The position numbers were made by a program, and so were the translations under genes. A stretch of 64,000 bases of DNA from Tubulanus polymorphus. Lineage: Eukaryota; Animalia; Nemertea. Shown in pieces: positions 9,101-52,554 of the stretch (its first letter is position 1; each line of letters opens with the position of its first letter). The DNA lies in the NCBI RefSeq assembly GCF_964204645.1, contig NC_134035.1, positions 13,886,686 through 13,950,685 on the forward strand, given 5' to 3'. The notes beneath the pieces were generated by a model that ran no database searches, was not told the DNA's origin, and was given only the letters and a program-made list of their open reading frames with translations.

Positions 9101-9969
9101 TGGGGTGGTGGATAAACCCAATAATAGTAAATAGGGACCTGAGGAGAGTTTAGAAATGGATCGGGCCGCGGTACTACTGAGTCTGAATTCAACTATATTC
9201 GCCAGCAGGTTCGCGTGCTCGTGGTGTGTCCAGCCCCGGGCTGCTTAGGGTTTTAATTAGGAGTAGTGGTATAAACTATTGGAGCCGGAACTCCAATTGA
9301 CGGAGCCACCCGTCGGGTCTGTCGCCGCGTTCATTAGCGATCATTATTATGAGATATAGATCAATATTAGGCAGTAACGGCACAGCGCAGTACGTGACAG
9401 TTACTACTAAACATTAATGATATCAGCGAGTGGAGATATTGATTTTGTCTATTTACTATAATTTACGATGTCTCCCGCTCTGCGAGCGCTGAGTGTCGCG
9501 AATCACGTACGCTACATAACAGATCAATACTCTGCACCAGTTCAAACAATAACGAACAACATTGTTTATAAAACATTTTATTGATTGGACAAAATATGTA
9601 GTTCATTTACATACAAGTGCCCGTCGATCCGGGTACCCGTGACCCGGCTCTTAAATTCTACACTCTTTTCAAATTACACGCATAAAGACACGAAACAAAA
9701 TTCATTTCGTAAAAAAGAAAATCATTCCAATTGGTTATAAAGTGATATCCTGCAGGGGAGGTTCATTCAATGATTGACACTTTAATGGCCGACACGTGAC
9801 CAGAGATATACTCACCGAATAGAAACACCAGACGTGGATTCGTATCCAATAATTCTACTTTTTTATCAACGCGAATACTGACTTTAGGCAGACGATTATT
9901 TGTGTCTGCTCCGTTTGATTTATCTCCGCGTTGAGGTGATGTTTGATCTTTACTTCCTCCGCAGCCCAT
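3101..9969 (-). CDS. Adenylate-kinase-like protein, N-terminally acylated, degenerate active site; 8 exons (9969-9816, 8752-8598, 6349-6176, 5057-4884, 4617-4428, 4238-4147, 3603-3493, 3322-3101), ~423 aa
   Basis: Phase-consistent GT-AG exons. MGCGGS N-terminus; LVFLFGGPGSKKGR P-loop-like motif; YGFHHLSTEEII; YVIDIVPN; DEADASRTQKRAILYEESSRIFLKYF resembling the AK1/AK5/CMPK C-terminal helix. Confidence 0.8.
3804..3920 (+). mobile_element. tRNA-derived SINE head or tRNA pseudogene followed by a TTAGGG-like tail (intronic)
   Basis: Pol III A-box TGGTCTAGCGG (3811) and B-box GGTTCGAGTCC (~3855) with tRNA spacing; stems poorly paired; followed by gttagggtt repeats. Confidence 0.55.
4695..4895. 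repeat. Degenerate tandem repeat including the AK-like exon 4 donor (CTAGAACTCAG|GTA)
   Basis: 'tacctgagttctag' at ~4704, 4744 and 4881 (the real donor), with degenerate copies between. Confidence 0.8.
5051..5175. repeat. 42-bp tandem repeat (x3) spanning the AK-like exon 4 acceptor
   Basis: Minus strand TAATATTATTTACAG|TATTCAGTG copies versus the real ...TTTACACACACACAG|TATCCAGTG. Confidence 0.8.
7140..8552. repeat. 38-bp minisatellite (GGATCCAGTTCCACAGTGTGGGTTTTATTTGCCACTGT) in AK-like intron 2
   Basis: More than 30 tandem copies with variants. Confidence 0.95.
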
Positions 9970-11203
9970 CCTCTCTCTCTCTCAATCTCTATCTCATCCT
10001 CTCAAATCTCAATCTCTTTATCTCACTGTAATGTAGTCTGCGAGTTGTGAACACATCGTTTTTGCTGTTTTTGCGTTTGTATTAACGATAAATTCGATAT
10101 TTCACGTCGGATTTTCTAAAAATCCGTTTTTTCGCATTTTACAGCTTCCCAATGTTTACTTCCGCGTTTCTGTCAAAAATACAGCAAATATAAACTAGAT
10201 GGCGTTAGACCCAGGCGCGCTGTAAATCGATAGACCATCAGCACCAAGTGCTGAAATCACTGGCTGGCTGGTGGAGACGGGCGTTGCCGCGCGCGACCGG
10301 AATTGAGTTGAACGCACCCCACGGGTTCTCTGGGCCCCGATCTCGATTGTAGGACCGTCGGTCAATATTCAAATCGATTTACCTATTCATTAGGGCTTCT
10401 GAAAGGGTTCAAATGTGAATATTATCACCCATGTGTAGCGGAGCTACCCATCATCCGGCATTATTCGGAACCACCCTCAGTAGAAGCATTACTCGCTTCC
10501 CTGTGCATGCAAAATACTCGCTTCCCTGTGCCTACCCTAAATATTAAATTTTTTTTATAAATGAGAACATACATCCCAAAACACATTTGACATGTAAAAT
10601 CTGAGAATATTAGCCATAGATCCGGGAATCCATTGATGTGGGGTACGCCCCAGACTTTATAGATGGCAGCACGTTACGCCCGTGAAAGAAAATCTCCCGG
10701 TAAAATTTAATTCAGATAGGTAGGTAAACAAGACTATAAAAATCCACAAAATTCGATGGATGTTTTCTGTATTGTCAGTTGTCACACGATGAGGGGATTA
10801 AAGAAGCGCCGACGTTTTTGCTAAGGCCTAAAAACCCAAGCCCGAAGCTTCCCATGCGCGCAACACTCCTTGTTTGTTGTTGAATCCTTGTGGTGTTGTG
10901 CACGAGTGTCGGAGTGAGACTGTATGACTCAAACAACCAAAATGCCTTGAAATATAACTTTTTTATTTATTCCTTATCGATGTTAACACTTTAAATCATA
11001 TCAGTAATGAATATCCGCTGCTGGAGGCATATTTTACATAATATTTTTGTAGGAAAATAACATAACATTACCGAGAATCGTCGATCAATCAAATTCAATG
11101 AAATTTATTGTTAACTGAGATAGTTTTGGATAGACAAAATATTCATATTGAAATGTATTTTTTGCATTATTATTCATATGGAATTAGTTTAAGGTGATTT
11201 ACT

Positions 11204-13106
11204 TTAATTTCCCTTCTTCGGTTTTGGATCTGGTGGTGTCTTATTCTTGCAGTCACAATTATCAACTGAAAATGAAGGAAGATATCTCGCATAAACAAAG
11301 ATACTAAAACATAAAATGTGCTAGAATTAAGAAAATGAATATTCTTGACTAGGTTATAGATAAGTTCCGATATGAAATGGAATCGTACTTACCATCATAA
11401 GATAAAAACCCACTATCTACAGATTAAAAGAATTTAAAAACCAGGGGCCGGTTGCTCAAAGGTTGGTTAGAGTTAACCAGTGGATAGTTGATATGGTGAC
11501 AATTGAAATTTCATTGTTACTATGGTATTTAACGGCCGGTTATCTTTAACCAACTTTTGAGCAACTGGCCCCTGAATTTATTTATTCAATCTAAAATATA
11601 TAAAAGACACAACGTTTCGATCTCACCCTAGAGATCATCGTCAAGTGTGTGAGATCATCGTCAATCTCACACCTGACAATGATCTCTAGGGTGAGATCGA
11701 AACGTCATGTATTCTATATATTTTAGATTGAATAAATAAATTCTTGTTTTTAAATTCTTTTATTCTGTAAATAGTCGGTTTTTATCGTATTATCGGTTCA
11801 CCACGTTTCAGTTTGCAGGTTATTGTTCTAATACTTACCATCATTTCTCTTCTGGAACGGCCAAGGAGCAGCTTTGAATTCTTCCTCGTCAACAAATGAG
11901 TCCTCTGAATTAAACGATTTAAAAAACTCTTTTGAGTTCAATCATAATCGTCATGAAATGATTCATTCAGGCTGTAGGCCTTTACCTACACACAGCCGAA
12001 TAGTTTAGAAAATGTAAATAATGAAATTATGACAGCATTTTACGTTTAGATTTTTTTAAAGTAACGAGACGAGTAGTACTATATAGGTTAACTATTTATT
12101 TGACGCACGAACTTTCGCTTCTAATGAATAGAAGCTTCATCAGGTGAATGAGTGTAGTCAATAGAAAAACAACAGTATTTATAGGCAGACTGACACTAAT
12201 TACGGAGAACTGAGTGAGAAGAGTAATTAATTACATATAAATGATGAGTGACATTTTTTTGAGAGTGAGATTCATTTTTCAAATGGATCGCTCGCTCGCT
12301 GGTGAATTCTTTTTTAAAAAAGTGAGAACGTCCTCTCGGGTTTTGAATATAACTGACCGTTTTTATCGGCTTTGCGCATCAGGAATTTAGCGTCGTCGTC
12401 GTCCAATTCCATGGCAGCAGAGAATTCATCTAACGATATCTTTCCATCTTCGTTTACATCGAAGAAATCGAAATTGTTCGGAATCGTTATTTCGCGTTTA
12501 GCGTCCGTCGCATTTGCTGCCTCTGCCTACAAAACGACGTTTAATGTCGAAATATCGACGCTGCCGAAAATTCTTTTAACCCTTTCAGTGCGTCTACACC
12601 GCAGTGCGGTGTATAAATCAGTGATAGATTTTGCTAGTACACCGCACTGCGGTGTATTGATGTAATTAGTAATTATCTCTATTGAAAGATGGCAGCACCT
12701 GTCAAACACTGTGAAATACTAGTAACTAACGATACATCGCGCCGCGGTGTAGAAGCACTATAGTGGAATTCCCATTATTCAACACGCTAGGGTGGAATTT
12801 TTCAAATTATCTCCAGCACTATAGGGTATTAATTAGCACTGAAAGGGTTAATGCGTTTAGAAATATATACGTACAAGATCACATCGGGCCTCGTATAAAA
12901 ACAAAACTTACCGCGGCGTTTGATGAAACGTCGCGTTTTCTGCGGTTCGAGCATCTGATGTTGCAAACTATAGCGCATCGATAGCTAAATCCAACTCTTA
13001 AACAGACTAATCTACAATAACGCCGACAACTGAATATTGCTTCTCCCTGCTGAACGTAACACACAGTCACCAAACAAACCAGTGCCAATACCACAATATA
13101 ACGCAT
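11204..13106 (-). CDS. Secreted precursor: signal peptide + 6-Cys cationic peptide + RRKR + two EF-hands (mytimycin-like architecture); exons 13106-12912, 12526-12358, 11904-11839, 11265-11204; 163 aa
   Basis: MRYIVVLALVCLVTVCYVQQGEA|IFSCRRYCRLVCLRVGFSYRCAIVCNIRCSN|RRKR...FDVNEDGKISLDEF...ADKNEDSFVDEEEF...VDNCDCKNKTPPDPKPKKGN*; all junctions GT-AG and in phase. Confidence 0.85.
11399..11831. mobile_element. Penelope-like inverted pLTR remnant with two degenerate minimal hammerhead motifs, flanked by a 13-bp TSD
   Basis: Long inverted repeat 11401-11655 / 11664-11787. Motif ACAC-(C/T)TGAC(A/G)A-T-GATCTC-TAGGGT-GAGATC-GAAACGT on both strands, followed by AATAAA. TACTTACCATCAT at 11386-11398 and 11832-11844. 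Confidence 0.7.
11442..11574. mobile_element. MITE nested in the Penelope-like remnant
   Basis: TIRs CAGGGGCCGGTTGCTCAAAGGTTGGTTA ... TAACCAACTTTTGAGCAACTGGCCCCTG; interrupts one arm of the larger palindrome. Confidence 0.8.
12103..12149 (-). ncRNA. Minimal type I hammerhead ribozyme-like motif (Penelope-type)
   Basis: Minus strand CAC-CTGATGA-A-GCTTCTA-TTCAT-TAGAAGC-GAAA-GT-TC-GTG, with TATAAATA ~35 nt upstream and AATAAA downstream. Confidence 0.6.
12580..12847. mobile_element. piggyBac-type MITE
   Basis: TTAA|CCCTTTCAGTGC ... GCACTGAAAGGG|TTAA: perfect TIRs with TTAA TSD. Confidence 0.9.
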
Positions 13107-13283
13107 CTTCGGCTAGAAAAAGAGCTAACAAATTAGGCCTATATGATGGAAAGAATTTGGCAGCTGTGTCTCTACTTGAAAGTTGTAACAAACCTTTACT
13201 GTTCTGTCGTATCTGTAGAATATTCCAGTAACCTATTCTTCAGAAAATTGTCTCTTTTATGAGAGAAATTCGAATTAGCGCGA

Positions 13284-13328
13284 CTTTTATAAGGTTTCAT
13301 CGCGGTAGCGGGTTTTTCCTGGTTTTCC
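13284..13328 (-). promoter_or_regulatory. TATA box and Rel/NF-kappaB-type site upstream of the peptide gene
   Basis: TATAAAAG on the minus strand at 13291-13284; GGGTTTTTCC at 13310-13319, plus an adjacent partial site tggttttcc. Confidence 0.5.
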
Positions 13329-13880
13329 TGATTAGAAATTTTTATTCACAAGAATGCACGGGTACTTGAGAAGCTATTCAAAGTTTGATGTGAAGTACTT
13401 TCTCCCCACTAGTGAAACACTTCTAAAAAAAAAAATCTTTAAAAAGTGACAGACTTTAGAAGGAAAAATGAAATTATCAAGTTATTTGGAATCATGGTAA
13501 TCTTTGCGCAGATTGCACAGGTAGACCTAATAGATTAGGCAGTATCATTTATGTTAACGAAAGATTAGGCAGTATAGCTTTGTTAAGGAAACAACCAGTA
13601 AGAAAAATACAAAGATCAATTGTAGAGATGAATTTAGGCGAACTAATGAATGTAATTTATATCTAGAGTTATATGAATCAAGAATTTGAAATGAAATCTC
13701 CAAGATCACTGAAATGATGTGAACTCTGAATGATCGCCACATTTTATTAGTTTCATTTTCTTAGCCAGACAAAACAGATAGGATAGGAACTTGCTAATAC
13801 TATTTCAAATGTCCTCCGCAAATTTCCCTAGAGCTCTTTCAGATCTCGGGATAAACACGCTGATCTCGGTAATTGGAAGG

Positions 13881-14307
13881 ACCCAGCGTAATCCCCCGCC
13901 GGCCCTGGCCTGGTGCGTGTGGTATAGTGGTTGTGTGTCCTCGGCCTCACTGTCTACAGCGCCTAAGACCCAGGCGTAATCCCCCGCCGGCCCTGGCCTG
14001 GTGCGTGTGGTATAGTGGTTGTGTGTCCTCGGCCTCACTGTCTACAGCGCCTAAGACCCAGGCGTTATCCCCCACCGGCTCTGGCCTGGTGCGTGTGGTA
14101 TAGTGGTGGTGTGTCCTCGGCCTCACTGTCTACAGCGCCTAAGACCCAGGCGTAAACCTCCACCGGCCCTGGCCTGGTGCGTGTGGTATAGTGGTGGTGT
14201 GTCCTCGGCCTCACTGTCTACAGCGCCTAAGACCCAGGCGTAAACCTCCACCGGCCCTGGCCTGGTGCGTGTGTGTGGTATGCGTCCTCGGCCTCACTGT
14301 CTACAGC
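13881..14307. repeat. 88-bp GC-rich tandem repeat (~4.7 copies) upstream of TK2/dNK
   Basis: Unit ...cgtaatcccccgccggccctggcctggtgcgtgtggtatagtggttgtgtgtcctcggcctcactgtctacagcgcctaagacccagg. Confidence 0.9.
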
Positions 14308-14348
14308 GACCAACCAAATCTCCCATTCAGCGCATCCTCATCTTTAAC

Positions 14349-15266
14349 ATGGACAGTTTTTGGTCATATTCAGCCTTTACCCTTGTAAGTTTTTGTCAAG
14401 ACCTCAAACTGAGCCGAATTTGGCTGAAATCGCGAAAGATCCAGAAAAAGATATTCAATTTTTTTCCGAGTTGTGAAGATTATGAAGTTAATCGGTGTAA
14501 ATGTAATATTTGAATTATTTTTTGCATTCACTAGGTGGCGCTGATTGACGGTATGTTTGGTTCGTGTAGTTTAAACGATGAATCATCGTGTAACGATTTT
14601 GCGGTGATTCCCGATTCCGTAAAAACGGATAAATTCACAGTGGTCGTCGAGGGTAACATCGGCAGCGGTAAATCGACGTTCCTGCAACATTTCTCGAGTT
14701 CTCCGCACGTCGAGATCTTCCAGGAACCGGTCGCTATGTGGAAGAGTGTACGCGGTAACAATACCCTCGAGTTAATGTATAAAGATGCCAAAAGGTGGAG
14801 CCTCGCGTTTCAATCGTACGTTCAATTAACGATGACGGAGATTCATTGTAAGGTAACCGAGCGACCGGTTAAACTGATGGAACGTTCTATTTATAGCGCG
14901 AGGGCGTGTTTCGTAGAGAATCTACACCGAGCCGATTTAATGCCCGATTTCGATTTCGCCGTTTTAAACGAATGGTACGATTGGATCGTGAAAAAAAAGG
15001 CCAATAAAATCGATTTGATCGTTTATTTACGCGTCGATCCGGAAATCTGTCGGCAACGTTTGATTAAACGGAATCGCGCTGAAGAATCGGAGATTCCTTT
15101 ATCGTATTTGAATTGTTTACACGAACTACACGAGGATTGGTTAATGAAAGGGAATCAGTTCCCGATACCGGCGCCCGTTCTTGTGTTAGACTGTAATAAA
15201 GATATCTCGTTATTGAGAGACGAGTTCAATTCTCATAAAACTGAAATTTTATGTGGATTTGTTTAA
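14349..15266 (+). CDS. TK2: Deoxynucleoside kinase (TK2 / insect dNK family); probable exons 14349-14384 and 14535-15266
   Basis: VVVEGNIGSGKSTF P-loop, EPVAMW, FQSYVQLTM, LMERSIYSAR, DLIVYLR, RNRAEE, LHELHEDWL motifs. Confidence 0.9.

Positions 15267-50120: not shown

Positions 50121-52554
<2,434 letters not shown>

Follow-up and report, generated by a model that had tools for sequence, protein, structure and literature searches.

The locus considered here raises the question of whether a small gene of the nemertean Tubulanus polymorphus makes a new kind of defence peptide. A sequence-only reading of the window (the whole 64-kb stretch of DNA that was analyzed) had proposed that an exon for a signal peptide and a cysteine-rich hairpin is spliced to exons encoding two EF-hand loops, giving a secreted precursor with a defensive role. 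The gene is LOC141912690 of the RefSeq annotation, on the minus strand, and its product, termed P0001, has 163 aa; translation of the 4 coding exons gave P0001 letter for letter (492 nt, single stop).

One 820-nt contig from run X4 joins all five exons at GT-AG borders, its aligned blocks being 13258-13194, 13112-12911, 12525-12358, 11904-11839 and 11265-10947, and a 712-nt contig from run X3 (same sample as X4) contains 3 of the joins of this five-exon model together with a terminal poly(A), so the proposed joining of the peptide exon to the EF-hand exons is borne out in transcripts. Run X2, from a different study, contains two of the exon joins with 27-nt sides. Because of the exon joins and the poly(A), we take X2, X3 and X4 to be of RNA origin; run X1 behaves as genomic DNA, with about 30-fold depth, contigs that cross exon borders and no exon join among the rows listed. 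In the spliced contigs, poly(A) begins at 10947, 24 nt downstream of an AATAAA at 10971. LOC141912690 is a real, transcribed gene. Its structure departs from the earlier reading in that the supposed exon 1 is exon 2, a 5' UTR exon being spliced on upstream. Two further points were absent from that reading: an intron between exons 3 and 4 interrupts EF-hand loop 2, and the last coding exon supplies a conserved Cys-Asp-Cys tail. Loose ends of the X3 and X4 contigs at 11905 and 13090 match P0003-type paralog sequence by eye, which implies transcription of at least one paralog as well. The X2 contigs reach a depth of 24,914 on the exons versus 32 on the neighbouring kinase, a kind of depth that cannot rank genes; cover of the exons was little in run X5 and zero in run X6, depth being no guide to expression level or tissue.

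Table 1 Features of LOC141912690 and its promoter region, in window coordinates.
Feature	Position	Strand	Basis
Putative Rel/NF-kB-like site GGGTTTTTCC	13310..13319	plus	19 nt upstream of TATA box
TATA box	13285..13291	minus	33 nt before 5' end of longest spliced contig
Exon 1, 5' UTR	13194..13258	minus	X4 contig; 5' end is the limit of contig reach; joint 13112-13194, CT..AC
Exon 2: signal peptide from the ATG (13106), Cys peptide, RRKR and first part of the pro-part	12912..13112	minus	Spliced contig and translation
Exon 3: linker and EF-hand loop 1 (12460-12425), then the first part of loop 2	12358..12526	minus	Contigs; Pfam EF-hand_5 at E 6.9e-6, slightly below the cut-off
Exon 4: remainder of EF-hand loop 2, APWPF end typical of the family	11839..11904	minus	Contigs, translation, paralog alignment
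Exon 5: Cys-Asp-Cys tail (11257-11249), stop (11204), 3' UTR	10947..11265	minus	Contigs, translation, paralog alignment
Coding exons	13106-12912, 12526-12358, 11904-11839, 11265-11204	minus	Translation compared with P0001
Predicted signal peptide, 23 aa ending GEA	13038..13106	minus	Hydrophobicity and paralog conservation
Predicted mature peptide, 31 aa, CX3CX3CX8CX3CX3C, net +6	12945..13037	minus	Sequence
RRKR, predicted furin-type cleavage site	12933..12944 (residues 55-58)	minus	Sequence; KR, GKR or RxxR at this place in paralogs

Elsewhere in the window, an intronless deoxynucleoside kinase ORF (14535-15266, plus strand; Pfam dNK, E 1.2e-55) lies head to head with LOC141912690 and is covered by an 840-nt X2 contig; it may be a retrocopy, since it is intronless within an intron-rich genome. 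Within introns, at 11440-11750, 12060-12200 and 12575-12850, lie short palindromic repeats, MITE-like by eye, at which X1 depth is thousands to tens of thousands versus about 30 for unique DNA. An 88-nt tandem array lies upstream of the gene (13875-14310), and numerous intronic minisatellites across the window yield long spurious ORFs. By their motifs, exons at 50717-52487 (plus strand) presumably belong to a thymidylate synthase. A short exon at 9763-9981 (minus strand) that opens with MGCGGS, which we take to be a likely myristoylation and palmitoylation signal, belongs to the downstream gene.

The 23-aa leader, the 6-Cys Arg-rich 31-mer, the RRKR and the two EF loops that had been read from the DNA are all seen in the sequence of the precursor, and its being a spliced secreted protein is supported by the contig joins and by a leader that is hydrophobic and conserved among paralogs. 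The P0001 peptide has 6 Cys spaced 3,3,8,3,3, with 6 Arg, 0 Lys and 0 acidic residues. The pro-part comprises 105 residues; its two EF loops, at residues 88 and 119, both have the Ca2+-ligand positions intact. Charge is split between a peptide of +6 and a pro-part of -11. Pfam gave no match on exon 2, phmmer found no sequence match for the peptide in the PDB at E 10, and profile and fold searches with the precursor retrieved generic EF-hand proteins only. In the ESM Atlas every feature match was below 0.9, with no usable match for residues 1-62 and structure rows below the naming bar; several mollusc EF-hand clusters appeared there as leads only (< 0.9).

Sequence searches identified eight paralogous proteins in T. 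polymorphus, with scaffolds of three lengths. Since P0007 as annotated lacks the leader and peptide, we excluded it from the pairwise counts, leaving 7 peptide-bearing paralogs. The family with a conserved EF-hand part and hypervariable peptide that had been expected was found: over the 21 pairs of these 7, identity is 0.75 for the EF pair, 0.76 for the Cys-Asp-Cys tail and 0.67 for the signal, as against 0.46 for the peptide (0.36 with Cys excluded). Net charge is +5 to +10 for the peptides and -9 to -18 for the pro-parts. EF ligand positions X, Y, Z, -X and -Z are kept in 16/16 loops, Gly at position 6 being found in 3 only. All 7 peptide-bearing paralogs have G/S-E-A at the end of the signal peptide and a basic processing site. 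In P0002 and P0008 a Gly stands before this site (G-KR), which makes an amidation signal that P0001 lacks. Peptide length ranges from 29 to 43 aa. Of the Cys ladder only the centre loop differs in length (4 to 10 residues); in P0008 the centre has 4 residues and the inner four Cys read CX3CX4CX3C. P0004 and P0006 (2/7) lack both C1 and C6, leaving 4 Cys, and this joint loss of the first and sixth Cys supports the predicted C1-C6 bond; the C2-C5 and C3-C4 pairs are drawn from ladder symmetry alone.

The Cys-Asp-Cys tail is invariant in 8/8 paralogs, where many other superfamily members instead place a single Cys within EF loop 2 and another at the C-terminus, and this contrast in placement suggests a different disulfide or dimer link. 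No second copy of the CX3C-ladder gene was found in the 64-kb window, the Cys pattern occurring once across its six frames. A chance ORF or pseudogene was ruled out, the gene being spliced, intact and accompanied by paralogs.

The TATA box and the Dorsal/Rel-type site that had been noted upstream are both present, but the Rel-like site is no commoner than chance, the pattern GGGW5CC having 5 matches in the 64-kb window versus 4.5 expected. Its adjacency to the TATA box alone is suggestive; as evidence of immune induction we rejected it on this count.

The breadth of the family came from a profile of the eight paralogs, which gave 774 matches at E 0.001 among 1.84 billion representatives; the best 150 of the 774 were listed. 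Among these, 149 are outside the family, 53 of them have at most 230 aa, and 26 of the 53 show a hydrophobic N-terminus (a crude filter). In 14 of these 26 short secreted proteins, among the matches listed, at least two CX3C units precede the EF pair; 8 of the 14 have a full symmetric six-Cys ladder (2/8 with identical 3,3,8,3,3 spacing) and 2 have eight Cys. The other 12 listed comprise 2 with CX7C ladders, 7 without a Cys peptide and 3 otherwise arranged. Signal, CX3C ladder, basic site and EF pair follow one another in this order in an anemone (Actinia), a soft coral (Paramuricea) and two molluscs (Lottia and Liolophura); in the annelid Owenia the ladder is a CX7C variant. Owners could be named for 12 of the 20 proteins looked up among the 26: Actinia tenebrosa (3), Nematostella, Paramuricea clavata, Owenia fusiformis, Lottia gigantea, Liolophura sinensis (2), two extra Tubulanus genes and Xenopus laevis (peptide-less). 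Databases currently call such proteins 'EF-hand calcium-binding domain-containing protein 1-like' or 'uncharacterized'. On sequence likeness, LOC141912690 is one branch of a family running from cnidarians to molluscs and not an isolated novelty.

In an EF-pair tree, 32/32 secreted rows and 1/10 four-EF controls stood apart from the other 9 controls (99/96), the tree being rough (62 columns, most forks open, bootstrap unsettled). A calmodulin-type cytosolic protein was rejected on account of the signal, the two loops and this separation from 9/10 controls. P0026 and P0047 form a second Tubulanus subfamily on the EF-hand carrier; P0026 has an identical 3,3,8,3,3 ladder, but its peptide is near-neutral, rich in acidic residues and Pro-containing, and perhaps has a different function. 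The secreted peptide-less proteins P0081 (Xenopus laevis), P0059, P0100, P0101 and P0121 form a single clade, and the carrier may thus persist in vertebrates without cargo. Because of near-neutral (P0026) and peptide-less members (7/26 listed), the EF-hand carrier alone does not imply an antimicrobial.

The best short non-family match listed is P0020, which is XP_031572955 (E 2.5e-17); P0001 is 33% identical to it over 136 aa spanning peptide and EF pair, and it falls in the same secreted clade of the rough EF-pair tree. XP_031572955, annotated as EF-hand, is named in PMC11051070 as the top-identity match of equinin B, and the link from P0001 to equinin B rests on that statement. Equinin B was purified from Actinia equina tentacle as an antimicrobial of 34 aa with 8 Cys, in which CX3C runs flank a 5-residue centre; its precursor is ordered signal, peptide, prodomain, and the synthetic peptide is weak, with an MIC of 0.25 mg/mL against three bacteria, and not haemolytic (PMC11051070). 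Its C-terminal fragment depolarises Gram-positive membranes (PMC12842892). By kinship of the precursor with the closest match of equinin B, the defence role proposed earlier has become more likely, and LOC141912690 is likely, from these sequence comparisons, to be a host-defence peptide precursor of equinin-B type.

In the mechanism that we consider probable, a secreted precursor is cut at RRKR to free the Arg-rich 31-mer, a predicted three-disulfide hairpin that would kill microbes at their membranes and would be shielded by the acidic EF-hand part until release. After entry into the secretory pathway and signal cleavage, the peptide would form three disulfides in a ladder (C1-C6, C2-C5, C3-C4), with cystines and aromatic or aliphatic residues on one face of the hairpin and arginines on the other. 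The acidic EF pair would bind Ca2+, then mask or chaperone the cationic hairpin, until a furin-type cut at RRKR releases the peptide into mucus or body fluid to bind anionic microbial surfaces and attack membranes. By analogy with BRICHOS, we give about an even chance to the pro-part binding Ca2+ in the secretory pathway and acting on the peptide by electrostatic masking or chaperoning; precedents for masking are anionic pro-parts (PMC10608444) and BRICHOS with annelid beta-hairpin peptides (PMC13001179). Neutralisation or gating by the pro-part, as put forward in the sequence-only reading, is likewise a hypothesis. A predicted complex of the peptide with the EF part, run without alignments, scored 0.01, a value that gives no verdict on contact.

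The fold of the peptide is where the strongest alternative arises. CX3C spacing does not decide it, because capitellacin, a beta-hairpin by NMR with Cys at 5, 9, 14 and 18 (PMC7761999), shares the spacing of the inner four Cys of P0008; its hydrophobic cluster lies at C+1/C+3, as opposed to C+2 in the Tubulanus peptides. The helical hairpin of the sequence-only reading became doubtful, AlphaFold with the lone peptide giving alpha, whereas AlphaFold with paralogs and the sequence pattern point to beta. With six paralogs, AlphaFold modelled two strands, residues 25-38 and 41-54, at a pLDDT of about 70 (55 for the model as a whole). Beta-formers (V/I/Y/F/W/T) make up 30-58% of the non-Cys peptide residues in the paralogs, helix-formers (A/E/L/M/Q/K) 0-16%, and a hydrophobic residue stands at C+2 in 19/24 CX3C units. 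The 170-degree moment is larger than the 100-degree one in 13/14 paralog arms, a count in which the paralogs are not independent and permutation p-values are optimistic; among the arms of 14 other ladder proteins, the beta-type moment is the larger in just 15/27. The centre loop of relatives spans 2 or 4 residues, and Pro occurs within their CX3C units. Because of composition and two-residue alternation, we lean towards a beta-hairpin. Beta-hairpin antimicrobials are described as cationic, with at least 2 Cys pairs at least 3 apart, Arg over Lys and 11-25 aa (PMC13001179). The P0001 peptide shares three of these four sequence features (+6, three Cys pairs, 6 Arg versus 0 Lys) and exceeds the length (31 aa, 29-43 in paralogs), class assignment requiring CD or NMR (PMC13001179).

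The same precursor and defence role with a disulfide-stapled alpha-helical hairpin, like those of alpha-hairpinins or turgencins, is a credible possibility that we place on the less probable side. Turgencins pair C1-C6, C2-C5 and C3-C4 (PMC11767717), and equinin B, which is rich in K, Q and R, has been given a helical model (PMC12842892). AlphaFold run on the lone peptide without alignment gave an alpha-hairpin (H2-15/H18-30) with pLDDT 87 (80-87 over five models), which in structural alignment scores Z 3.3-3.9 against VBP-8, nigellin-1.1 and wasabi receptor toxin, low values that are conditional on the model. Single-sequence AlphaFold tends toward helices. Against this alternative stand the alignment-based beta model, the alternation and the abundance of beta-branched and aromatic residues in the paralogs, and the centre of just 4 residues in P0008. 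Both folds permit the same disulfide ladder, and the superfamily may hold both.

A role for the peptide as a toxin of mucus or proboscis, or as a deterrent against animals, acting on membranes or ion channels and diversified by duplication, is in our judgement unlikely. A conserved scaffold with a hypervariable peptide would suit toxins too, and nemertean neurotoxin B is a helical hairpin, although it differs from the P0001 peptide in length (about 55 aa) and Cys count (four disulfides). Cys-rich peptides are secreted in Cephalothrix mucus, two of them with six Cys (PMC12846013), and these two might be relatives. In anemone venom, CjTL3 is an EF-hand protein and CjTL7 a symmetric eight-Cys peptide with a weak effect on shrimp (PMC5673964); either may belong to the EF-hand carrier family. 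A toxin is at odds with the sole characterised relative, which is antibacterial without haemolysis (PMC11051070). The same cassette also occurs in a limpet and a chiton, which are non-venomous.

Tubulanus species build secreted tubes, and it is conceivable, if more unlikely still, that the EF-hand part is the working product (a secreted Ca2+-binding mucus or tube protein, or a nesfatin-like signalling precursor) with the peptide structural or accessory. The EF pair and Cys-Asp-Cys tail are the best conserved parts (0.75-0.76) and secreted members without the peptide exist, but this reading is opposed by the basic site in 7/7 peptide-bearing paralogs, with amidation signals in two, by the Cys ladder retained from cnidarians to molluscs, and by the purification of the anemone relative as a free peptide (PMC11051070).

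If the preferred reading, an antimicrobial hairpin released from an EF-hand precursor, is true, the EF-hand pair would be a second minable carrier after BRICHOS, yielding many candidate peptides at once; equinin B and perhaps mytimycin would be linked, the role of the mytimycin EF-hand would become testable on a small peptide, and Nemertea would gain a candidate antimicrobial family. Known families of beta-hairpin antimicrobials number fewer than 30, and mining of the BRICHOS carrier has been their best discovery route (PMC13001179). More tentatively, and with the odds in our opinion clearly against the whole of it, the secreted EF-hand pair could be an ancient carrier older than the cnidarian-bilaterian split, a counterpart of BRICHOS and cathelin that masks hairpin defence peptides under Ca2+ control, whose CX3C ladder switched between alpha-hairpin (equinin-like) and beta-hairpin (nemertean branch) and which would flag a large class of hairpin antimicrobials with three or four disulfides that is still to be mined.

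The open full-text literature, subscription journals being outside its scope, treats equinin B and mytimycin separately and yielded no cross-phylum family, no Tubulanus genes and no paper on a nemertean beta-hairpin antimicrobial peptide. In the available portions of the nemertean toxin papers PMC7460313, PMC10674772 and PMC12846013 no EF-hand/CX3C precursor is described, and those of PMC11896702, PMC11359391, PMC8398477 and PMC11767717 hold nothing on the family beyond turgencin connectivity. Nemertea has 0 occurrences in the accessible text of the marine and aquatic invertebrate antimicrobial peptide reviews PMC10608444 and PMC11767717, and the equinin B paper, as far as its available text goes, describes no family (PMC11051070). 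What makes the locus valuable is how far the EF-hand carrier extends, apparently without previous description, together with a possible long three-disulfide beta-hairpin.

Among known systems, the mytimycins are antifungals, described as restricted to Mytilida, with a signal, a Cys peptide, a dibasic site and an anionic EF-hand extension, and with multigene variation (PMC8004829). P0001 shares this order of parts, including the dibasic site followed by the anionic EF-hand extension; the sequence-only reading had recognized the layout of signal, Cys-rich peptide and EF-hand extension together with the longer, more Cys-rich mytimycin peptide. That peptide has a 10-Cys core and no CX3C ladder, whereas P0001 has 6 Cys (4 in two paralogs), and the APW.F end is absent from the mytimycin rows compared by eye (PMC8004829). 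Membership of the mytimycins was rejected on the 6 Cys versus a required core of 10 conserved Cys; no 10-Cys protein occurs among the 53 short matches within the best 150 of 774 listed.

Turgencins and plant alpha-hairpinins resemble the P0001 peptide in their CX3C motifs, and turgencin also in its six Cys, but turgencin is amidated and P0001 lacks the amidation Gly. We know of no EF-hand precursor for either group. Equinin B has the order of parts seen in P0001 (signal, cationic symmetric CX3C-ladder peptide, prodomain; PMC11051070), with one extra rung (8 Cys) in a Lys/Gln-rich peptide of 34 aa, whereas the P0001 peptide has 6 Cys, Arg only and a leaning to beta. The gomesin precursor (signal, peptide, amidation site, anionic extension; PMC11678162) is likewise similar in order, and its amidation signal is shared by P0002 and P0008. 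What is new, then, is a nemertean branch of a known precursor type, in which the one characterised relative has weak activity, and not a new category. Tachyplesin, polyphemusin, gomesin, capitellacin and alvinellacin have the same Arg-rich CX3C ladder, but tachyplesin-type peptides have two disulfides in 17-22 aa, as opposed to a predicted three in 29-43 aa in Tubulanus, and where beta-hairpin antimicrobials are carried by a short anionic tail or an N-terminal BRICHOS, the Tubulanus peptides are carried by a C-terminal EF-hand pair.
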